In this document: piece after piece, positions 6,038-50,352 of the stretch
Numbering within the stretch: the first letter of the stretch is position 1
How the letters are laid out: each line of letters starts with the position of its first letter
Assembly (NCBI GenBank): GCA_965224025.1
Contig: OZ245033.1
Location: 867,571-931,570 of the forward strand
Origin: Candidatus Multivorans sp.
GTDB taxonomy: Bacteria; Acidobacteriota; Thermoanaerobaculia; Multivoradales; Multivoraceae
DNA: 64,000 nucleotides
Reading direction: 5' to 3'
Made by a program: the position numbers and the translations under genes
Notes under the pieces: model-generated
The model's input: the letters and a program-made list of their open reading frames with translations, nothing else
Databases searched by the model: none
What the model was told of the DNA's origin: nothing

Positions 6038-9019
6038 CTAGTTGAGGTAGATGAACTCGCTCGCCGCCAGGATGACGTGGCAGAGCCTCGTCCAGGCGTA
6101 GATCTCCGCTTCGTCCGCCGGCCCTTGCGGACGCATCTCGTCGAGGAAGGCGAGGCCGTCGGCGACCTCGGCGGGGTCGGCGGGGCGCCCGTAGGCGCGG
6201 ACGAACGCGGTGTCGATGCGATCCGCGGCGCTCGCCTCTTCGAGCTCCAGGAGTTGCCGGGCGAAGCCGAGCGCGGCCTTCTCGACGAAGGGGCTGTTCA
6301 TCATCAGGAGCGCCTGCCGCGGCAGAACCGTCTCGGATCGATCGCCGACTGAGTCGCTGGCGTCGCCGAAATCGAAGCCGCCGAAGATCCTGTAGATCGC
6401 GTTGCGTACCACCGGCATGTAGATCGAGCGCCGCGGCGCGTCGTAGAAGTCGACCTGGCCGAGGGTGCCGCCTTCGCCGAAGACGTAGCCCCTCGGGTTG
6501 TACTCCTCGACCCGTCCGCCGATCGTCAGATCGAGGCGGCCGGCGAGCTGCAGCAGGGTGTCGCGAATCGGCTCTATCTCGAGGCGCCGCCGGTTCATGC
6601 GCCAGAGCAGGAGGTTCTCCTCGTCGACGGCGGCGTTTGCCGCGTCGTAGTCGGTCGACAACCGATACGTGCTCGACAGCATGATGTCGCGGTGCAGGTT
6701 CTTGAGCGACCAGCCGCCTTCGACGAAGCGGCGCGCCAGCCAGTCGAGAAGCTGGGGATGGCTGGGAGCGCTGCCGATGGCGCCGAAGTTGCTCGGCGTG
6801 TCGACGATGCCGCGGCCGAAGTGCCAGCGCCAGACGCGGTTGACGATGACCCGTGCGGTGAGCGGGTGCTCGGGGTGGGTGATCCAGCGCGCCAGTTCGA
6901 GCCGCCCGCTGGCGCCGCCTGCCACCGGTGGTGGCGGCACGAGGTGGTCGGTGACCTTCAGGAATCCGCGCGGCTCCGGTTTCTCGGCGAGGTTCAGGTG
7001 GCTGCCGCGGATGTGAACCGGCAGATCGACGATGTCCGCCTCGTCCACCGCCATGGCGTACGGCGGCGCGGGCGGCGAGGCTCCTTCAAGTTGTTCGACC
7101 TCGGCGCGCAACTCGGCGAGCCGCTCCAGCGCCTCCGGCGGGTAGAGCTTCTCCTCCTCTTCCTGGTCGAGGCAGGGAATGCAGAAGTAGCCGCCGTAAA
7201 CCAGCCATCGCAACTCCTCCTGCTCGCGCGGCAGCCTGAAGTCCGAGAGCGCAAGGTCGTCCTCGTCCTTGAGCCCGAGTCGCATCAGGTGCTCTTCCCA
7301 GGCGATCTCGATCGTCGCGAAGAGGCTCGCGTAGCGCCAGGCGACCTCCTCCAGGGTCTTTGGCGCCGGCCCGCGGACGAGGCCGCGGGTCAGGGGCGCC
7401 GTCAGCACCTTCTCCGAGGCGATGATCGCCCGTAGATCCTCGGTCACCTGCTCGTAGCGATCGGGCGAGGCGGCGGCGTAGGCGTTCCAGATCACGAAGA
7501 CGGTGCTCGGGCTCGGGGCATCGCCCTCGACCGGCGGGCCCTCCCGGTACCGGTAGAAGGCCCTGACCCAGCGCTCCAGGACGGCCGGCTCCAGTCCCCG
7601 GCCCCCGGCGACGCGGCGAAACGTCTCTCTGGCCTTCTCCTGCTTCGCCTCGTCCTCGCTCCAGCTCGGGTAGACCTCCTCGGCGGCCAGCAGATACTCG
7701 GCGAGCGCCGCCCGTCGAGGCCGCCGCAGGATCTCGTTCTGTTCGTCGACCACTTCGTCGACCTTCGCTTGCGCTTCGGCAACGAGCTTCTGCGCCGCCT
7801 CGTACCGGGCGAGCGTCTCTTCCGGGACCAGCGGCCGCTCCAGCCAGCGCATGCCGGCGGCGTCGCTCATCGTCGCGGTCGAGCGCAGGACGCCGGCCAT
7901 CGCGTAGTAGTCGGCCGTGGGGATGGGGTCGAACTTGTGGTCGTGGCAGCGGGCACAGCCGACCGGCAGGGCGAGAAAGGCGCGGCCCACGGTGTTGACC
8001 TGCTCGTCGACGATGTCGATCAGCATCTTGTCGACGTCCTGTTCCGCGAGCACCTTGGGTCCCAGCATCAGAAAGCCGGTCCCGGTGATCTGCTCGAAGC
8101 GCTGGGCCTCGGTCTCCGCCGGCATCAGGTCGCCGGCGATCTGTTCGTGGACGAAGCGGTTGAAGGGCTTGTCGCGGTTGAGCGAGTCGACGACGTAGTC
8201 GCGATAGCGGAACGCGTTGCGGAAGGCGATGTTCTCGTCGAGGCCGTTCGAGTCGGCGTAGCGGGCGATGTCGAGCCAGTGGCGGCCCCAGCGCTCGCCG
8301 TAGTGCGGAGATGCGAGGAGGCGGTCGACGACCCGGGCGAAGGCGTCGGGGTCCTGGTCGGCGAGGAAGTCCTCGATCTCGGCTTCGGACGGCGCCAGGC
8401 CGATGAGATCGAAGGTGGCGCGGCGCAGCAGGGTGCGCTTGTCGGCCGCGGCCACGGGCGCAAGGTCCTTCTTCTCGAGTCGCGCCAGGATGAAACGGTC
8501 GAGGGGATGGCTGATCCACGCCTCGTTCTCGACCTCGGGCGGTGCAGGGTCTTCGACCCGGCGGTAGGCCCAGTGCTCGCGGCCGGCGGTGTAGTCGAAC
8601 GACTCGGCCGTTCTGGGCGCAACCACCGTCTGCTCGGCGCCGGTCCGCGGGTCGGGTGCGCCGCGGCGGATCCACTGCTCGAAGTCGGCGATCACCTGCT
8701 CCGGCAGCTTGCCGTCGGGCGGCATCTGGGTGAGCTCCTCGTAGTGGAGCGCTTCGATGAGCAGGCTGTCCTCGGGCGAACCGGGCACGATCACGGCGCC
8801 GCTGTCGCCGCCGGCGCGCAGTCCATCGGCATCGAGCAGGGCCAGCCCACCGCGGATCTTCTTCGGATCGCCGCCGTGACACTCGTAGCAGCGCTCGACC
8901 AGGACCGGCCGGATCTTCGACTCGAAGAACTCGAGATCGGCGGGGTCGGTCTCAGCGGCGCCGGCGACCGTGCCGACCGCCGCCAGCCAGGCCAAAACGA
9001 AGGACGCAGCGCGAGTCAT
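6038..9019 (-). CDS. PSCyt/PSD-domain protein (DUF1549/DUF1553, planctomycete cytochrome-c-like)
   Basis: Signal peptide, CYECHG, SPHYGERWGRHWLDIARYADSNG and CARCHDHKFDPI. This is the canonical partner of the adjacent DUF1501 gene. Confidence 0.9.
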   Translation of the reverse strand: MTRAASFVLAWLAAVGTVAGAAETDPADLEFFESKIRPVLVERCYECHGGDPKKIRGGLALLDADGLRAGGDSGAVIVPGSPEDSLLIEALHYEELTQMPPDGKLPEQVIADFEQWIRRGAPDPRTGAEQTVVAPRTAESFDYTAGREHWAYRRVEDPAPPEVENEAWISHPLDRFILARLEKKDLAPVAAADKRTLLRRATFDLIGLAPSEAEIEDFLADQDPDAFARVVDRLLASPHYGERWGRHWLDIARYADSNGLDENIAFRNAFRYRDYVVDSLNRDKPFNRFVHEQIAGDLMPAETEAQRFEQITGTGFLMLGPKVLAEQDVDKMLIDIVDEQVNTVGRAFLALPVGCARCHDHKFDPIPTADYYAMAGVLRSTATMSDAAGMRWLERPLVPEETLARYEAAQKLVAEAQAKVDEVVDEQNEILRRPRRAALAEYLLAAEEVYPSWSEDEAKQEKARETFRRVAGGRGLEPAVLERWVRAFYRYREGPPVEGDAPSPSTVFVIWNAYAAASPDRYEQVTEDLRAIIASEKVLTAPLTRGLVRGPAPKTLEEVAWRYASLFATIEIAWEEHLMRLGLKDEDDLALSDFRLPREQEELRWLVYGGYFCIPCLDQEEEEKLYPPEALERLAELRAEVEQLEGASPPAPPYAMAVDEADIVDLPVHIRGSHLNLAEKPEPRGFLKVTDHLVPPPPVAGGASGRLELARWITHPEHPLTARVIVNRVWRWHFGRGIVDTPSNFGAIGSAPSHPQLLDWLARRFVEGGWSLKNLHRDIMLSSTYRLSTDYDAANAAVDEENLLLWRMNRRRLEIEPIRDTLLQLAGRLDLTIGGRVEEYNPRGYVFGEGGTLGQVDFYDAPRRSIYMPVVRNAIYRIFGGFDFGDASDSVGDRSETVLPRQALLMMNSPFVEKAALGFARQLLELEEASAADRIDTAFVRAYGRPADPAEVADGLAFLDEMRPQGPADEAEIYAWTRLCHVILAASEFIYLN

Positions 9020-9297
9020 GGGAGTCTCTGAAGTGGACGGTGGAGTTTACTTGATCGACGACCCGCTCAGGCGTCCGCCCGGCCCCCGGGAAGGTACGCT
9101 CGGGCCTTCCGAAAAGGAACCGCGTGCCTTCCACGTCAACGACGAGTTCTGTGCTCCGCACATGGTGCCGCTCAGGCCATGTGGAAGCAGGTTCATCCTT
9201 GGCGGTCGAAATTCTCTAAGCCGCCGCTGTACTGGCACTACATCCCGCGAGAAGTGATGGAGCAGTTTAGGTAGCTGGAATCCCCGCTACGTACCGG

Positions 9298-9971
9298 ATG
9301 GCAAAGATGGGCTGTAGCGGCGGAGGTCACATGACGAACAAGATCATCACCCACGCCGATCGGTTCAAGGCCGCGTCGTCAGGCGCCGGTGCAGTGAACC
9401 CGGGTGGCGCGGGTCGCGCCACCCGCGAACCACTGCGGCCGCGAGTTGACGAGCGCACGGATGACACTGGATCTCGATGTACGGTCAGAGCGACGCGCGG
9501 AGCTACCGCACGCCCTGGTTCGGGGGGACGCCGTGGGAGGAGGACGCCCCGAACGGCGTCTACTGGGAGAACTCGCCGCTCAAGGACATCTACAAGGTGA
9601 CGACTCCGACGCTCGTCCTGGTAGGCGAGAACGATGTCCGCGTACCGCCGCCCCAGTCGGTGGAGCTGTACCGGGCCTTGAAGGCGAACGGCGTGGACAC
9701 ACATCTCTACATTGCCCCGCGCGAACCCCACGGCTGGGGCGAACTCCGCCACGAGCTCTTCAAGGTCAACGTGGAGATCGACTGGTTCGAGCGCCACGTC
9801 CGGGGCATCGAGTACGAGTGGGAGACCGGTCCGGGAGACGACCGCGTTTCTGTTCTCGGGGATACCGCTGCGGAGCATTGCTTCGCCGACGGCATGGGCG
9901 GACGTCTGGGCAGCGTACTGCGTGTACGACGATGCCTACACCGATCGACGGACGTTCGGCTTCAACTGTGA
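9298..9971 (+). pseudogene. Remnant of an S9 (prolyl-oligopeptidase-type) serine peptidase: N-terminally truncated and frame-broken
   Basis: Frame 1 reads MGCSGGGHMTNKIITHADRFKAASSGAGAVN (GxSxG nucleophile elbow). The sequence resumes in another frame as HWISMYGQSDARSYRTPWFGGTPWEE..TPTLVLVGENDVRVPPPQS..PREPHGW..WFERH. No upstream propeller or N-terminal part is present. Confidence 0.7.
9396..9464. repeat. REP/MITE-like element, family B copy (inside the S9 remnant)
   Basis: GAACCCGGGTGGCGCG-GGT-CGCGCCACCCGCGAACC hairpin module matching 50257.. and 12504... It lies exactly between the two peptidase reading frames. Confidence 0.7.
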
Positions 9972-11769: not shown

Positions 11770-12557
11770 TCAATCGAAAGCCGTCAGGATCTCCTCGTTG
11801 CCACGCCTCCGGCTGGTTGGGGACGCCGCACAGGATGATCTCCTTGGCGCCTGCCTCGATACTACTGCAGCAGGTCCTGAATGTAGGAGGCGGTGCCCCA
11901 GCAGTACCAGGGCCGGCCGGGCGACTTTGCGGCTTCCTGGTCGTTGGCGAAGAGCCGGAAGGGCGGGGCGACCGTCCGTTTGATGTCCGCCGGATCGCGG
12001 TCGGCGTCCCCGCAGTGACTGTCGAGGACCTCCTGCCTGTGGCGGAAGACATCGACGCCGCCGGGGTGCCAGAAGTCCAGGTTGCTGATGTCGCCGTACC
12101 GGGCGCAGGTGCGGAGCGTCCTCTTCTCGCCGTTGCCGCCGATCAGGATCGGAATGTGGGCCTTCCGGGTAGAACGCGGCCGGGTCGAACCAGGCGGCGC
12201 CGATCCCCAGCTCCATGCGTCCGCCGCTGATGTGGTCGACGCTGGCGTATATCTTCGCCAGCAATGCCGGATTGCGGTAGGTGATGCCGCAGGCGAGGGT
12301 TCCGAGCCGCACACGTTCGGTCAACACAGCAGCCGCGGTCACCAGGTCCAGACCTCGATCGCCGACTTGTTTTCGGAGGTGGGATCGGCCGGCGGCAGGA
12401 AGTGGTCCGAGAACCACCGGCTGCTCCAACTGCCGTTCTCGATCGTCCGAACAGTAGCCTCGATCCGTGGCCACGGCAGGCGGTAGCTGCTGAGCTGGGC
12501 GCCGAACCCGGTTGGCGCGCCTCGCGCCAACCGTGAACCGGTCCGTGCGCCCGTCAT
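11770..12557 (-). pseudogene. Luciferase-like (LLM/F420-type) oxidoreductase, multiply frameshifted with an internal deletion
   Basis: Pieces lie in different frames. N-terminus: FGAQLSSYRLPWPRIEATVRTIENGSWSSRWFSDHF (ORF 12339..12557). Middle: LDLVTAAAVLTERVRLGTLACGITYRNPALLAKIYASVDHISGGRMELGIGAAWFDP (ORF 11770..12621). C-terminal part: AHIPILIGGNGEKRTLRTCARYGDISN (ORF 11862..12314). Tail: IEAGAKEIILCG, then NEEILTAFD* in other frames. Confidence 0.75.
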
Positions 12558-12570
12558 CGGGCGCTCGGCT
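12501..12570. repeat. REP/MITE-like element, family B copy
   Basis: GAACCCGGTTGGCGCG-CCT-CGCGCCAACCGTGAACC followed by CCGTGCGCCCG-TCAT-CGGGCGCTCGG. It sits at the junction of two gene remnants. Confidence 0.75.
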
Positions 12571-12607
12571 GCACTTCCATGGCCCGAAGCTACTCTGAAG
12601 TGGTACG

Positions 12608-20673: not shown

Positions 20674-21888
20674 GGTCGGCAGAGCAGTTGCAGGTTGTCG
20701 AGTTCGTCTCCGCCGCCTTCGGCTTGCGGCACGATGTGGTCAACTTCCATGACGTTGAACTGGGTGAAGGTGGAGCACATGGCACACCGCGCTTCCTGCT
20801 GGCCGTAGAGCAGGTGCTTGTGACTGGTCGGCTTCGGCGGCGCTTGCGACTCCGGGACGCTCTCTGCGGTCCAGTACTGGATGTCGTGGAGCACCGTACC
20901 CATGAACGAGACTTCGTTCGTCAGCCGCTCCTTGACGAGCTTGTACGCCATGTCGCTGATGTCCATGCCGATCCACTGGCGGCGCAAACGCTCCGCCGCT
21001 ACGCAGGCTGTGGCGCAACCGCAGAACGGATCCAGGATGATGTCGCCCTCGTTCGACGATGACCGGATGATCCGTTCCAAGAGTGCTAGCGGTTTCTGGG
21101 TCGGATAGCCGACGTTCTCGGAGGACTGCGAGTTCAGGAAGTTGATGTCGAACACATCTGTGTGCCGGTTGCCCTGGGTCGTGTCCACTGCCTTGATGAT
21201 GTCGAAGTCGTTGCGGTTGATCTTCCCTTTGGCTTCCTTCCGGGCCAGAACAGCTTCGTCGTAGATGTACAGGTAGCGCTGTCCGTTCATTCGCTTCGTG
21301 TTGTAGCCAGCCCGAATGAGTTGCTGCTTCCGTGGCGACAACTCGGAATCGTAGGTCGCGGTGTAGTGGAACTTCGTGGAGCGCGAGTAGAACAGGACCG
21401 TGTCGTGAGCGCGCAGAAACTTCTTGGCCCGCGAGTTCGCCACCTTCTTGTATGACCACACGATCTCGTTGCGGAACTGGTTCCGCCCGAAGATGGAGTC
21501 CATCAGCGTCTTGAGGTAGTGGCTGGCGGTTGGATCGCAGTGCAGGTACACGCTGGCCGTGGGCTTCATAACACGCCGTAGTTCGAGCAGCCGCACTGCC
21601 ATGTAGATCAGGTACGCCTTCATGCCCTTCGAGTGCGCGGTGCCCGCCGCGTCGATGGTCTGGTACAGCGCCGGGTGGTGTTCCGCGAGTTCGCCGTGCC
21701 CGCCGCCTTGCTGCCTATCGGCGCAGCGAAGTTCCGGTTCTTGTTGAACGGCGGATCGAGGTAGACCAGATCTACGCATCCGTCCGCCATTCCGCGCAGG
21801 ATGTTGAGGTTGTCGCCCGTGTGGATCGCCCGAACCCAATCCTGCGGTCCGTATCTTGCAGGGACAATTCCGCGCCGTCCGCCGTCAT
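20577..21888 (-). pseudogene. Amino-DNA-methyltransferase (DPPF type) fused to an HNH nuclease; two frame changes plus a short deletion
   Basis: ATG 21888 overlaps the transposase stop (ATGA). DWVRAIHTGDNLNILRGMADGCVDLVYLDPPFNKNRNFAAPIGSKAAG is in a second frame. HGELAEHHPALYQ..SVYLHCDP..GYPTQKPLALLERII..DPFCGCATACVAAE and the C-terminal CAMCS..DHIVPQAEGGGDELDNLQLLCRPCNLAKG are in the third frame (track ORF 20577..21839). Confidence 0.75.
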
Positions 21889-22883
21889 GCCGTCGCTTCC
21901 CGTGCGCCCGAAGGCAGGCCGTTGTCGGCGATTAGGTCACGGTAGCGGAGGCGCTTGCCATCCATGTCTTCGGCGAAGCGGTCCAGTTGCTCCGCCGTGT
22001 CGAACTCGCGGACGTTCTGCCGCCAGCCGAACTCGTCCACGTAGCGCTGCAACTGCTTCGGCGAGAGCTTGTGGAACGTGCCTTTGTGCGAACGCTTGAG
22101 CATGGACCACAGGGACTCGATGCCATTCGTGTGGATCTTGCCGTCCACGTACTCGCCGACCGAGTGCTTGACCGTGCCACGCTCATACTCGGTCAGACCC
22201 GCGTAGGCCCCGGTGTCGTCGGTGTAGACCGTCGCGCCGGGTTCGACATGCTCCCGGACGAATGCCTGTAGGGTCTCGCCATCGGTCGAGCGAACCACGC
22301 GGGCCGCTACCTGTTTCGTCTCGCGGTCCTTCACTCCCACCACCGCCGTCTTGCCGACCGTGCCGCGACCTTCCATCGTCTTCCGCTTCTTGGCGTGCAT
22401 GTTCTTCCGCAACCCGCCGATGTACGTCTCATCGGCTTCAACCGGGCCGGGGAACAGGACGTTCGGCCCGTTCGTCTCAAACGCCGCCCGGAGACGCTGC
22501 GCCATGAACCACGCGGTCTTCTGAGTGACACCGAGGTCGCGGTGCAGCTTCATGCTCGACATGCTCTTGAGGCTGGTCGTCAGCAGGAACGCCGCGAGCA
22601 TCCACTTCTGGAAGCCGATCTTCGAGCCTTCCATGACGGTGCCGGTCTTCGCGCTGAACCGCTGGTAGCAACCCTTCTCGCGGCAGCGGTACGGCATCGA
22701 CTTGTGCTTCGCACCCGTCTGGACATTGTTGGACCCGCAGGCCGGGCAGGTCGGCCCGACGGGCCAGCGGCGCTTGACGTACCATGCCTCCGCCGTCTTG
22801 TTGTCGGGGAATATCCGCATCATCTCCACCAGAGTGATGCCCTTCCGGTATGCCTTGCCGGGTGCCTTGTGCTCAGTCATCAT
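21885..22883 (-). CDS. IS1595-family transposase (N-terminal zinc ribbon + DDE)
   Basis: CPACGSNNV..YRCREKGCYQRFS zinc ribbon, MKLHRDLGVTQKTAWFMAQRLR and VEADETYIGG..VYTDDTGAY..HTNGIESLWSMLKR. It is strongly similar to ORF 41783..42769 in the C-terminal two-thirds. Confidence 0.9.
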   Translation of the reverse strand: MMTEHKAPGKAYRKGITLVEMMRIFPDNKTAEAWYVKRRWPVGPTCPACGSNNVQTGAKHKSMPYRCREKGCYQRFSAKTGTVMEGSKIGFQKWMLAAFLLTTSLKSMSSMKLHRDLGVTQKTAWFMAQRLRAAFETNGPNVLFPGPVEADETYIGGLRKNMHAKKRKTMEGRGTVGKTAVVGVKDRETKQVAARVVRSTDGETLQAFVREHVEPGATVYTDDTGAYAGLTEYERGTVKHSVGEYVDGKIHTNGIESLWSMLKRSHKGTFHKLSPKQLQRYVDEFGWRQNVREFDTAEQLDRFAEDMDGKRLRYRDLIADNGLPSGAREATA

Positions 22884-28240: not shown

Positions 28241-28292
28241 CTCGCCGCTTCGCGGCGGAGCGCCGGATGCGGACCAGAAGGTCCGCGCACCC
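28241..28292. repeat. REP-like double hairpin, family A variant
   Basis: CGCCGCTTCGCGGCG, then CGCCGGATGCGGACC-AGAA-GGTCCGC. It has the same loop (AGAA) and different stem bases from 10293 and 57636. Confidence 0.65.
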
Positions 28293-28349
28293 AGAGAAGG
28301 TCGACGGCTTGGCGAAGCGCTCTACGCAACTGGTGGGTCGTCGTGCAGG

Positions 28350-28375
28350 CACCGGATGCGGACCAGAACCCGGGT
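28350..28375. repeat. Truncated 5' module of REP family B, abutting the argR stop
   Basis: CACCGGATGCGGACCAGAACCCGGGT versus CGCCGGATGCGGGCCAGAACCCGGGT at 50240. Confidence 0.55.
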
Positions 28376-41782: not shown

Positions 41783-42769
41783 ATGAAGCACAAGGCACCC
41801 GGCAAGGCTTACCGCAAGGGACTGACGTTCGTGCAACTGGCGCGGATGTTCCCCGATGAAGCAGCCGCGCGAGACTGGTTCGAGACGTACCTTTGGCCCG
41901 ATGGAGTGAAGTGGTGCCCGAACTGCGGCGGCGACAACACGCACGCATGCAAGCACAAGCAGATGCCGTACCGCTGCCGCGACTGCAAGCGGTACTTCAG
42001 CGTCAAGACCGGCACGCTCATGGCTGGTTCGCCGTTGCCTCTGTTGACGTGGCTCTACGCGATCTACCTCGAACTCACATCGCTCAAGGGCGTATCGAGC
42101 ATGAAACTGCACCGTGACCTAGGCGTCACTCAGAAGACCGCTTGGCACATGCTCCAGCGCATCCGCGAAGCGTTCGCCGCCGAAGGGCCGGAAGTCCGGT
42201 TCGACGGTCCCGCCGAAGTGGACGAGACGTACTTCGGCGGTCTGCGGAAGAACATGCCGAAGTGGAAGCGTGCGGAGCTTGAAGGTCGCGGCACGGTCGG
42301 CAAGACCGCCGTGGTGGGCATCAAGGACCGCGAGACCAAGAAGGTCGCGGCGAAGGTGGTCCGCTCCACCGACGGCGAGACCCTACAGGCGTTCGTGCGC
42401 GAGCACGTCGAACCCGGCGCGATGGTGTACAGCGACGATACCGGGGCGTACAGCGGTCTGACCGAGTACGAGCGTGGCACGGTGAAGCACTCGGTCGGCG
42501 AGTACGTGGACGGCAAGGTCCACACGAACTCGATCGAGAGCTTCTGGTCGATGCTCAAGCGGGCGCACAAGGGTGTGTTCCACAAGATCAGTCCGAAGCA
42601 CCTGCAACGCTACGTCGATGAGTTCGCGGGTCGGCAGAACATCCGCGAGTACGACACGCTGGCGCAGATGGTCGCCGTCACGGAGGGACTCGCGGGCAAG
42701 CGGCTCCGCTATCGTGACCTGATCGCCGACAACGGCCTGCCGTCGGGCGCGCGCGAGGCCGCCGCATGA
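41783..42769 (+). CDS. IS1595-family transposase
   Basis: CPNCGGDN..YRCRDCKRYFS, MKLHRDLGVTQKTAWHMLQRIR and VDETYFGG..VYSDDTGAY..HTNSIESFWSMLKR. Confidence 0.9.
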   Translation: MKHKAPGKAYRKGLTFVQLARMFPDEAAARDWFETYLWPDGVKWCPNCGGDNTHACKHKQMPYRCRDCKRYFSVKTGTLMAGSPLPLLTWLYAIYLELTSLKGVSSMKLHRDLGVTQKTAWHMLQRIREAFAAEGPEVRFDGPAEVDETYFGGLRKNMPKWKRAELEGRGTVGKTAVVGIKDRETKKVAAKVVRSTDGETLQAFVREHVEPGAMVYSDDTGAYSGLTEYERGTVKHSVGEYVDGKVHTNSIESFWSMLKRAHKGVFHKISPKHLQRYVDEFAGRQNIREYDTLAQMVAVTEGLAGKRLRYRDLIADNGLPSGAREAAA

Positions 42770-44212
42770 CCATCCTCGGTTCGTTCAGTCTGGTTCCAAA
42801 CAGCCTCTACTACGGCGACTGCCTCGAAGTCATGGGCGGTTGGCCAGCCGAGTCGGTGGATCTGATCTACCTCGATCCGCCGTTCAACTCGAAGGCGGAC
42901 TACAACCAGTTGTTCGGCACCGAGAACGGCGTGCCGGCCCAAGTTCGGGCGTTCACCGACACATGGACATGGAACGACTCGGCGGCCGAGCGGTACGACC
43001 GTTTCAGCCGTGCAGTCGCGCATCCCGCGCACAAGGCGGTAGTCGGCCTGCACATGGCGCTAGGTCCATCGGGGATGCTCGCGTACCTCACCTACATGGC
43101 CGAGCGGCTCGCGGAGTGCAAGCGCCTGCTCAAGCCGACCGGCTCCATCTACCTGCACTGTGACCACACGGCGGGCGCGTACCTGAAGATGCTCATGGAC
43201 GCGATCTTCGGAGCGAACAATCGCCGAAGCGAACTCCACTGGTACTACTACAACAAGATGCACGACAGCCGGAAGAAGCTGTTTGCTGCCGCCACGGACA
43301 CAATCTTCTTCTATGTCAAGGATGTGGACTCCGGTTTTTCGTTTGAACAACTTCAAGAACGCCGCGAAAAGCCCGTCAAGCAGCTTGTACGAGCCAAAGT
43401 CAACGGCCGCATGGTCAACAAGCGAGACGAAGACGGTCGGCTGATGTACCAGACCAAGACACATAGAACCATTGACAATGTGTGGCGGATACCCTGTTTG
43501 CAACCAGCATCGAGGGAGAGATTAGGCTGTCCAACACAGAAGCCCCGTGCGCTGTTGGATCGCATCATCAAGGCGTCTTCTAGGGAAGGTGACTTGGTGC
43601 TTGACCCGTTCTGCGGTTGTGGCACGACGATAGACGCGGCGAATCGACTGCAACGGCAGTGGGTCGGCATCGACCTTTCACCGTTCGCCACTCGCCTTGT
43701 GCGTGACCGCAGGCTCAAGGATGCGAGTATCCAGATCTTCGGTATCCCGACAGATGTTGAAGGCGCACGGCTCCTGCTACGCAACAACCCGTTCGACTTC
43801 GAGGCGTGGATCGTTACGTCGGTGGACGGGCTGGCGGCGAACGAGGTCCAGGTAGGCGACGGCGGCATCGACGGGCGCGGCAGGATGTTCACCGTGCCGG
43901 ACGATGAAACAGGCTTGGTGCTCGCTCAGGTGAAGGGGGGGGTACACCGCATCGGCGCTGCGGGACTTCGAGGGCACGATGGGCCGCGAGAACGCCACGG
44001 CGGGCATCTTCGTCACCTTGAAGCGCGTCACAACGTCCAGTGCCCGCGCGGCTGCCAAGGCGATGGGCGAGTACCGCGTAGGCGCGACGCGCTACCCTCG
44101 GCTCCAGTTCTGGTCCGCAGAGGAGTATCTGAGGGGCGTCCGTCCTCACCTACCCGCGATGGCCGACCCGTACACCGGCAAAGCAGTTCAGACCGACATG
44201 TTCACCGGATAG
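42766..44212 (+). pseudogene. Amino-DNA-methyltransferase (DPPF) fused to a PD-(D/E)xK (Mrr-like) nuclease domain, out of frame at a G8 tract
   Basis: VDLIYLDPPFNSK, SIYLHCDH and GCPTQKPRALLDRII..DPFCGCGTTIDAAN. Next GDGGIDGRG..LAQVKGG, then a frame change to YTASALRDFEGTMGRENATAGIFVTLKR (ORF 43979..44212). With G7 the gene would be 482 codons, uninterrupted. Confidence 0.8.
43935..43942 (+). repeat. G8 homopolymer at the frame break of the MTase-nuclease gene
   Basis: gtgaaGGGGGGGGtac. The downstream frame has a TGA at 43931-43933, so the shift must occur inside the tract. Confidence 0.9.
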
Positions 44213-44225
44213 CAGGGAGGAAGCG

Positions 44226-44408
44226 TTGCCCAAGAAGCCGAAGCGCCACACGGAACACAAGAAGGTGTACAAAGCCGAGTACGGCGGCGCTACGCCCGCG
44301 CAGGTCACGCTTGCGCTTCTACGCTACCGTCCAAACGCACCCGAAGCCGTCACGAAGCGTTTGCCACCGCAGGTTCAAGCCGACCCCGCTATCAAGTCTA
44401 GTGTATAA
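44226..44408 (+). CDS. Small hypothetical ORF at the IS end (TTG start)
   Basis: MPKKPKRHTEHKKVYKAEYGGATPAQVTLALLRY. Its stop lies inside IR-R, and its position is equivalent to 20398..20673 in copy 1. Confidence 0.3.
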   Translation: MPKKPKRHTEHKKVYKAEYGGATPAQVTLALLRYRPNAPEAVTKRLPPQVQADPAIKSSV

Positions 44409-44414
44409 TCCCCC

Positions 44415-44789
44415 TTCCAAGGCACTCCGTTCGCAGACATCCTCTCTCAGATCGACGATCAGTCCAACCCACTGGCAATTGACCTCGGGCTGTTCTTCCT
44501 TGAGCAGAACGAGACCACCGTGCGGAAGTTCAACGAGCAACTTGAGAAGATCGTGCAGGGCGCTGCGACAGACGGTACTCCCTACCGGTTCGCCTTCGGT
44601 GTCGGCAATCGTGGGCCTGCGCTGACAGCGCACTGCAATCGTCTCCCGAGAGAGGAGGCCGCAGCTCTGTTGAGAGCGGACTGTCGAAGGGCCCTTGACC
44701 GGGTCGACTGCAGTTTCGGCATCTCGCTCGACCCGGACGGCACCATCAAGACAGTCGAGAAGCTAGTCCGCGCCGAACAAGACCGTTGA
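44415..44789 (+). pseudogene. Start-less ORF opening at the IS boundary (probable 3' remnant of an interrupted gene)
   Basis: The frame of ORF 44520..44789 stays open back to the IS end: FQGTPFADILSQIDDQSNPLAIDLGLFFLEQNETTVRKFNEQLEK.. No start codon with a sensible context is present. Confidence 0.4.
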
Positions 44790-50238: not shown

Positions 50239-50325
50239 GCGCCGGATGCGGGCCAGAACCCGGGTGGCGCGATCCGCGCCACCCGTGAACCAGTCCGTGC
50301 GCCCGCCATCGGGCGCACGGATGGC
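50239..50325. repeat. REP/MITE-like element, family B (most complete copy)
   Basis: GCGCCGGATGCGGGCCAGAACCC + GGGTGGCGCG-ATC-CGCGCCACCC + GTGAACCAGT + CCGTGCGCCCG-CCAT-CGGGCGCACGG. Confidence 0.8.
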
Positions 50326-50352
50326 GGGCTCTCGCACCCAGTTTCCGCCGCG

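Follow-up and report, generated by a model that had tools for sequence, protein, structure and literature searches.

The 68 nt at positions 9400-9467 of the window, the 64,000-nt stretch of Candidatus Multivorans sp. DNA analysed here, are with near certainty a derived insertion of a mobile repeat, designated family B. The insertion point lies between the Asn and Trp codons of an S9 (prolyl-oligopeptidase-family) peptidase gene. A palindromic repeat landing in a gene is an already known phenomenon. New here are family B, from an acidobacterial genus that is uncultured, and its clean insertion rule; no enzyme that would mobilise the family could be identified. No mention of the genus Candidatus Multivorans was found in the literature searched.

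The peptidase locus and its insert

The features of the locus, in window coordinates, are as follows.

9050 to 9292: deletion junction or filler, 243 nt (synteny with G010, G014 and G015)
9298 to 9399, + strand: upstream peptidase piece in frame 1, MAKMGCSGGG..SSGAGAVN (open reading frame list; 86-91% nucleotide identity to orthologs over 9293-9399)
9400 to 9467, + strand: inserted family-B element, decayed (missing in 12 orthologs; nhmmer 49.9 bits; 14/68 consensus mismatches)
9401 to 9425, + strand: hairpin 1, 11-bp perfect stem with the 3-nt loop GGT (pattern search, inverted-repeat entry I22, DNA fold)
9427 to 9430, + strand: internal GAAC between the hairpins, conserved in the family consensus (consensus and information profile)
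9435 to 9460, + strand: degenerate hairpin 2, 3' arm retained, 5' arm and loop scrambled (consensus comparison, fold)
9468 to 9835, + strand: downstream peptidase piece in frame 2, WISMYGQSD...EYEWE (89-91% nucleotide identity to orthologs over 9466-9835)

Orthologs of the peptidase were taken from a six-frame search of 30 relatives. They are full-length, with open frames of about 680-870 aa, occur in most same-genus genomes and share 91-94% protein identity with the remnant in the window. All 12 orthologs fetched from the same genus lack the 68 nt and read GTGAAC/TGGATC without interruption (a slash marks the insertion point here and below). Across the site they have ..GGCGCGGTGAAC/TGGATCTCGATGTAC.. 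(..GAGAVNWISMYG..) with no intervening bases (n = 12), whereas the filled site in the window reads GTGAAC[CCGGGTGG...GGATGACAC]TGGATC. The paralog copies in G018 also lack the stretch, and the flanks of the remnant are collinear with relatives on both sides of the insert. The alignment places the insert at 9400-9467. Because the final AC of the target also ends the element, the boundaries slide 1-2 nt to the left, and 9399-9466 or 9398-9465 are equally possible. As 68 equals 2 modulo 3, the insert shifts the peptidase reading frame.

An earlier note on this DNA had described a hairpin element of about 65 nt at 9396-9464 inside the peptidase coding sequence. The insertion stands, and its extent is corrected by the ortholog alignment to 68 nt. 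The break between two frames, read in that note as ..SSGAGAVN and HWISMYGQSD.., is likewise real, except that the His codon is part of the insert. The note also took the intervening DNA for a copy of the family-B repeat, which a full-length nhmmer match to the family of about 167 copies bears out, and its view that the element is or was mobile agrees with the empty site in 12/12 orthologs and the size of the family. Equivalent in-frame sequence at the junction, which would have spoken for a native loop, is found in none of the 12 orthologs. An origin of the 68 nt as a loop native to the peptidase of this lineage, or as a frameshift from sequencing or assembly, is scarcely credible. Besides its a priori possibility, this reading has in its favour that the sequence comes from a MAG whose contamination is estimated at 5.7%. 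It is refuted by the ortholog alignment and the G018 paralogs, and the full-length match to a multi-copy family, the length that is no multiple of three and the collinear flanks also stand against it.

The core of hairpin 1, GGGTGGCGCG-GGT-CGCGCCACCC, lies at 9402-9424, and an extra pair widens it to 9401-9425. The window contains three matches to its pattern, where shuffles predict 0.11. Hairpin 2 no longer folds in this copy, leaving hairpin 1 as the only survivor, and the fold z-score is -1.3 for 9400-9467 compared with -8.1 for the family consensus. The copy belongs to the ..GGATGACAC subfamily, from which it differs at about 8-9 positions (nearest subfamily), and ranks among the most decayed (136 of 150 by score under the nhmmer family model). 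The peptidase copy is now decaying neutrally; at this position it is functionless, a relic of selfish spread.

Other lesions of the peptidase remnant

The upstream piece reads MAKMGCSGGGHMTNKIITHADRFKAASSGAGAVN in frame 1, and the downstream piece contributes those portions of the catalytic domain that hold Asp and His. Joined without the insert, the remnant matches Pfam Peptidase_S9 (E 1.5e-26). In the upstream piece the nucleophile motif GWSGGG has become GCSGGG, and this W-to-C change, adjoining the catalytic serine, is private to the genome. The remnant has nine private replacements at sites invariant in the 12 orthologs, while each ortholog has 0-1 such changes.

The remnant also lacks its first ~552 N-terminal codons (of 724 in the G010 peptidase), or 76% of the gene. 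By comparison with relatives, a deletion of 4.3-7.8 kb took these codons and two to three neighbouring genes. The distance from the end of a DUF1553-type gene (window 9019-9050) to the position equivalent to 9293 is 6.3, 4.3 and 7.8 kb in G010, G014 and G015, respectively, and the G010 interval holds two to three genes plus the missing peptidase codons. On either side of the deletion the window is collinear with these three genomes. The 243 nt in its place showed no similarity to the loci of the relatives or to the rest of the genome.

The peptidase gene is dead for two independent reasons, deletion and insertion. The earlier note held that the element disrupted the gene. The out-of-frame insertion is confirmed, but not its causal role: because ~552 N-terminal codons are also deleted, the insertion may have entered an already dead gene. 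The 68-nt copy would persist since the gene was dispensable or already dead. There is a somewhat less than even chance that the insertion, not the deletion, first inactivated the peptidase, a question of the order of events only. The copy is old, judging by its 14/68 mismatches to the consensus and about 8-9 to the nearest subfamily, and its frameshift alone would truncate the enzyme ahead of Asp and His. Against this order, the deletion takes 76% of the gene together with two to three neighbours, neither lesion is dated, and the nine private substitutions fit either sequence of events.

Structure and distribution of family B

An iterated nhmmer search of the 5.14-Mb genome (67.6% GC) supplied the genome-wide copy count that the earlier note had called for: 167 hits, 89 on the + strand and 78 on the - strand. 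The family-B consensus is C-CCGGGTGGCGCG-ATC-CGCGCCACCCG-CGAACCAGT-CCGTGCGCCCG-TCAT-CGGGCGCACGG-ATGG(C/A)A(C), and in the family profile conservation is bounded sharply at both ends of a block of ~70 nt. Folded as single-stranded DNA, the consensus forms two different hairpins, one with an 11-bp stem and a 3-nt loop and the other with a 12-15-bp stem and a 4-nt loop, at a folding energy of -36.9 kcal/mol (z = -8). Every stem position is paired in 83-100% of cells among 157 distinct copies without gaps, drawn from both this genome and relatives. Compensated double changes occur in both stems, for example GC to TA, AT or CG at pair 10-30.

Within the window, a repeat finder aligns three 68-nt direct-repeat copies at 9396, 12504 and 50256. 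The two copies outside the peptidase locus are:

12508 to 12575, + strand: second family-B copy, intergenic, following GCGCCGAAC, with the compensated stem GGTTGG/CCAACC (here the slash separates the two arms)
50260 to 50327, + strand: third family-B copy, close to the consensus and lodged in the hairpin loop of a family-A REP (GCGGGCCAGAA/C..G GCTCTCGC)

Family B is present in 34/37 same-genus genomes and in 0/24 genomes from other genera of the order. In an exact-pattern scan of the GTDB species genomes, the matches listed all came from MAGs titled Ca. Multivorans, Thermoanaerobaculia or Acidobacteria. Copies are 96-100% identical across genomes, in a burst-like pattern. No Rfam family matches the window at gathering thresholds, and none matches a consensus-like copy at E <= 1. 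Truncated left halves, cut within hairpin 1, were observed at C1:4870071, 679519, 2286260, 751192 and 2396344. They are fused straight to the host repeat CCTGGGAACGCGGGCGTCTCGCCCGC and may be abortive or recombinant products.

Target sites and ends of family B

Family B integrates site-specifically at GAAC, without duplication, and carries a similar tetranucleotide, G(C/A)AC, at its far end. Of the 150 full-length copies, 113 have GAAC immediately to the left; the variants in the others are mostly one-off (CAAC, AAAC, GGAC, CGAC, GCAC). The block itself ends in GCAC in 63 copies, GAAC in 30, GCAG in 16 and ACAC in 8 of these 150, and the pairing of left GAAC with right GCAC occurs in 47 copies. 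Target-site duplications, which the earlier note had proposed to look for, are absent, since the left and right tetranucleotides differ in most copies (128/150; identical in 22). The two ends, CCCGGGTGGCG.. and ..CACGGATGGCA, are not mutual reverse complements, so family B has no terminal inverted repeats.

Pairs of empty and filled sites assign the terminal bases. At L115, filled GCAGAAC[68]TCACTCC has its empty counterpart, GCAGAAC/TCACTCC, in this genome. Because empty sites themselves carry GAAC, the left GAAC belongs to the target, and the left tetranucleotide is target-owned also at the empty sites of L132 (CAAC) and L043 (GCAC). An empty GAAG corresponds to a filled GAAC...GCAG at L027, L119 and L127 (GCGAA/G) and at L129 (AAGAA/G), as well as in the AGAA loop of family-A REPs, for example at window 28260. 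These pairs imply that the final one or two bases of the block are target-derived and that the cut falls within GA^A^C, a placement ambiguous by 1-2 nt. The exceptions are two cross-species pairs, L125 and C1:552027 versus L044, which depart from the rule by at least 2 nt.

Nesting within other repeats is frequent and falls precisely on this target motif. About 38 copies are nested at CCTGGGAA/CGCGGGC (CCTGGGAA/CGCGGGCRTCYYGCCCGCATCCGG) of another repeat, 16 lie in the AGAA loops of family-A REPs, and several occupy a third repeat, ..AAGCGCGAA/CGGCACCTGGG. In tandem family-B copies, the ..ACAC end of the first copy serves as the target. Many unique sites have nothing but GAAC in common. A preference of unique targets for hairpin loops was not significant (22/59, or 37%, compared with 839/3000 controls, or 28%).

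Family-B copies inside genes

A copy was counted as lying inside a gene where the open reading frame continues through the element, extends for 60 codons or more to either side of it and has coding-type GC3 in both flanks. Eleven copies qualify, that in the peptidase not being among them. All are 66 or 69 nt long, contribute ~23 residues each and have apparently intact hosts. Just 48 of the 150 full-length copies have a length divisible by three. The in-frame copies are:

C1:1119489-1119557: gyrA
C1:737117: uvrD/pcrA helicase
C1:5024330: ychF
C1:462911: S9A prolyl oligopeptidase (a second S9 gene)
C1:583499: Amidase_3 enzyme
C1:2597828: alpha/beta hydrolase
C1:3934010, 1916720, 2728015, 4533445 and 2500840: the remaining in-frame copies

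The statement in the earlier note that such repeats are normally intergenic does not apply to family B, since 11 of its copies lie in frame in long genes that look intact. In gyrA, the insert lengthens a variable loop of the C-terminal domain by 23 residues. This copy is common to this genome and G001 only (in G001, 66 nt and diverged) and is missing in at least 20 congeners, the gap being visible in a DNA alignment of seven. The peptidase copy is the complementary case: out of frame, and surviving only in a dispensable gene. The copy at C1:1122622 was rejected as an in-gene copy, as it sits between two genes. Separately, two neighbouring paralogous genes, whose motifs we take to be PPOX-like, each hold a family-B copy at the same position (C1:3371023-3371091 and C1:3369316). 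The C1:3371023 copy supplies an in-frame stop, so this gene, or the pair, may be truly disrupted.

Search for a mobilising enzyme

With positive controls, Y1_Tnp (IS200/RAYT) has no match in the genome. No RAYT remnant was found there by tblastn, and no TnpB. The cognate RAYT/IS200-like gene that the earlier note had suggested seeking is thus absent from the genome. Models of the left-end and right-end halves of family B returned no gene-enclosing pair that could mark an autonomous parent in the genome, just solo or truncated halves.

Y2/IS91 likewise has no match in the genome. A full Y2/IS91 gene is present in 0/37 congeners, where the sole trace is a 23-bit C-terminal fragment on G016:C3. 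Elsewhere in the order, eight genera gave matches in the same search, several of them with full-length genes; the search is therefore able to detect the IS91 family. IS91 was rejected as the partner of family B, since the genus is without it and its one weak hit is a fragment beside a Tn3-type gene. At that plasmid-like locus, L171 (G016:C3:58500-63500), the IS91 C-terminal fragment is overlapped on the opposite strand by the Tn3-type transposase gene.

A RAYT-like gene with the HUH motif PNHVHVL occurs in about 22 of the 37 congeners, mostly as a single copy; in L022 it is a 206-aa ORF. It is flanked by inverted, GTAG-tagged family-A REPs (..GCAGTAGAGAAC..), and no family-B copy lies within 1.5 kb of it. 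RAYT presence and family-B copy number are uncoupled: high-copy genomes, G000, G036, G047 and G037 among them, have no RAYT, and G014 has the RAYT-like gene and zero family-B copies. RAYT was thus rejected as the family-B partner, because its flanks are REP-A only and its presence does not track copy number. The RAYT-like gene of the congeners with its inverted family-A REPs looks like a REPtron, and the present genome retains family-A REPs and has lost the RAYT. Family-A REPs consist of GGATGCGGRCCAGAAGGYCCGCGCACCCAG with an AGAA loop plus a GCAGTAGAGAA module and are seen at window 28241-28300, 28349-28375 and 50239-50259 and in the flanks of L022 and L023.

IS608 and ISDra2 are biased in orientation relative to replication. 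For family B, copy orientation in the two replichores with clear GC skew is 26/22 and 25/30 (+/-; Fisher p = 0.43), a null result from a weak test, as the first 2 Mb are irregular. The cumulative GC skew of C1 is regular from 2.0 to 5.0 Mb, with a maximum at ~3.46 Mb, and flat or noisy from 0 to 2.0 Mb, which suggests rearrangements or assembly joins in that region.

Transposases of other types are present. IS110-family (DEDD) genes give 32 matches in the genome, in two types of ~13-15 copies each, both within REP-like repeats (examples at C1:289025-290749 and C1:111512-113177). Type 1 inserts after ..GCCGGCGCACC of REP-A (..GCGCACC), and type 2 at ..TGCGC/GGCAGAAC.. The window also contains two DDE genes, at 41783-42769 and, on the opposite strand, 21884-22873. 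They are diverged copies with ~81% identity and are presumably of the IS1595 type (zinc ribbon plus DDE transposase). One of the two adjoins a DNA methyltransferase-like ORF (42766-44625).

Comparison with known mobile repeats

REP/RAYT and IS200/IS605 systems combine hairpin and tetranucleotide recognition (PMC3479197). Family B is similar to REP/BIME sequences and their RAYT enzymes in its short GC-rich hairpins, the conserved tetranucleotide at the hairpin foot, its high copy number, its location mostly at gene ends, and the lack of both duplication and inverted termini. However, the REP super-family is defined by a GTAG or CGTC tetranucleotide at one palindrome end (PMC3733652), and neither end of family B is GTAG or CGTC; its tag is GAAC and its end G(C/A)AC. 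Also unlike REPs, family B couples two different hairpins in a fixed arrangement, and they move together as a single unit of 68/69 nt. In contrast to a REPtron, there is no cognate RAYT with family-B flanks, as the RAYT of the congeners is flanked by REP-A and the present genome is RAYT-free. RAYT genes are frequently lost from REP-rich genomes, and REP copies occasionally lie inside genes, notably replication and repair genes (PMC3733652).

IS801, a member of the IS91 family, targets GAAC, GGAC, CAAG, CGAC and GCAC (PMC3189936). Like IS91, IS801 and IS1294, family B adjoins GAAC-type tetranucleotides, causes no duplication and has a similar tetranucleotide at its far end. Short IS91-type derivatives are mobilised in trans (PMC3189936), and the likeness of family B to them concerns the target and end tetranucleotides. 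Unlike in the IS91 family, neither the genome nor the genus has a Y2 transposase, save the fragment on the plasmid-like contig of G016, and at 68 nt family B is far below the reported IS801 fragments.

PATEs of IS200/IS605 elements insert by single-strand HUH chemistry on the 3' side of a specific tetra- or pentanucleotide, without duplicating it (bioRxiv 10.1101/279083). Family B similarly has a hairpin near each end and inserts 3' of a fixed short target without duplicating it. It differs from PATEs in that the genome has no TnpA/TnpB, no full-length parent and no replication-strand bias, the bias test being weak. Rickettsia palindromic elements occur in frame within genes that are otherwise intact, whose products gain a peptide loop (PMC10969869). 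The 11 family-B copies of 66 or 69 nt, including that in gyrA, are comparable in being in frame within intact-looking genes, whereas their sequence and host are unrelated and the Rickettsia elements are ~100-150 bp long. The 68-nt, frameshifting peptidase copy in its pseudogene is the opposite of these elements.

Mechanism of spread

As a whole, the explanation that a non-autonomous family-B element inserted into the peptidase under the GAAC rule, by an HUH-type nick-and-join reaction, and remains as a relic in a dispensable or dead gene is moderately probable. An HUH-type single-strand mechanism for family B, taken by itself, has an even chance of being correct, or slightly better. The genome encodes no HUH enzyme, so this mechanism is an inference. 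An HUH-type nuclease would nick and rejoin single-stranded DNA, with cleavage at each junction in one and the same short motif next to a hairpin. It would act in trans and would no longer be, or never have been, encoded in this genome. In family B, a hairpin adjoins each junction and a GAAC-like tetranucleotide is found at the far end and between the hairpins, and copy-number bursts occur within one genus. By analogy, this pattern fits mobilisation by an HUH nuclease, in the style of IS91, IS200/IS605 or REP/RAYT, better than a classical MITE.

The earlier note had called the element MITE-like, a label that its lack of terminal inverted repeats and target-site duplication and its specific short target GAAC do not sustain. 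Compared with classical MITEs, family B shares the small size (68/69 nt), the lack of coding capacity and the high copy number (~167), and DDE elements do exist in the genome, the IS1595-like gene at window 41783-42769 being one. Yet a deletion derivative of a DDE insertion sequence, cut and pasted via terminal inverted repeats with target-site duplication, is very improbable. The two hairpins differ, hence the ends are not inverted repeats of each other; the flanks show no duplication (GAAC left and GCAC right in 47 copies) and the empty sites are gap-free; and a strict short target is atypical for DDE MITEs. Hardly more likely is mobilisation by the abundant IS110-family (DEDD) recombinases of the genome, which are also site-specific without classical inverted repeats and whose two types, like many family-B copies, sit inside REP-like repeats. 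Their insertion points, after ..GCGCACC of REP-A and within ..TGCGC/GGCAGAAC.., differ from those of family B, and the family-B ends are unlike the ends of these insertion sequences. Moreover, the bridge RNAs of IS110/IS621 specify roughly 11-14 nt, and the ~4 nt that family-B sites share are too few for a bridge-RNA-guided target.

Spread without any transposase, through recombination, gene conversion or template switching between GAAC-containing microhomologies and hairpins, is unlikely, if less so than either of these. It would agree with the negative searches for Y1, a RAYT remnant, TnpB and Y2, with the recurrence of the target tetranucleotide at the element end and between the hairpins, where it offers microhomology, and with the truncated hybrids between family B and a host repeat. 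It does not readily account for the gain of the whole 68/69-nt unit in the same phase in most empty/filled pairs, for the many unique sites with only GAAC in common or for the burst-like 96-100% identity across genomes. A further possibility, given only slightly more weight, is that family B is the non-autonomous partner of a single-strand system, HUH-like or other, that current transposase models miss or that is carried by a plasmid or phage missing from the assemblies. Its cut would fall at GA^A^C next to a hairpin, and the motif would be re-formed at the far end of the element. If true, it would explain the genus-wide bursts to ~200 copies without Y1/Y2, as well as the tolerated in-frame insertions in essential genes, gyrA among them.

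Significance

The orthologs with an empty site give a base-level view of family-B integration, at GAAC and with no duplication. Together with the other empty sites, the peptidase site shows family B to be a small, target-specific mobile element of an uncultured, GC-rich lineage, and an orphan. Family B also remodels essential proteins in frame. It is thus a tractable case for how REP-like repeats spread and which enzyme moves them.
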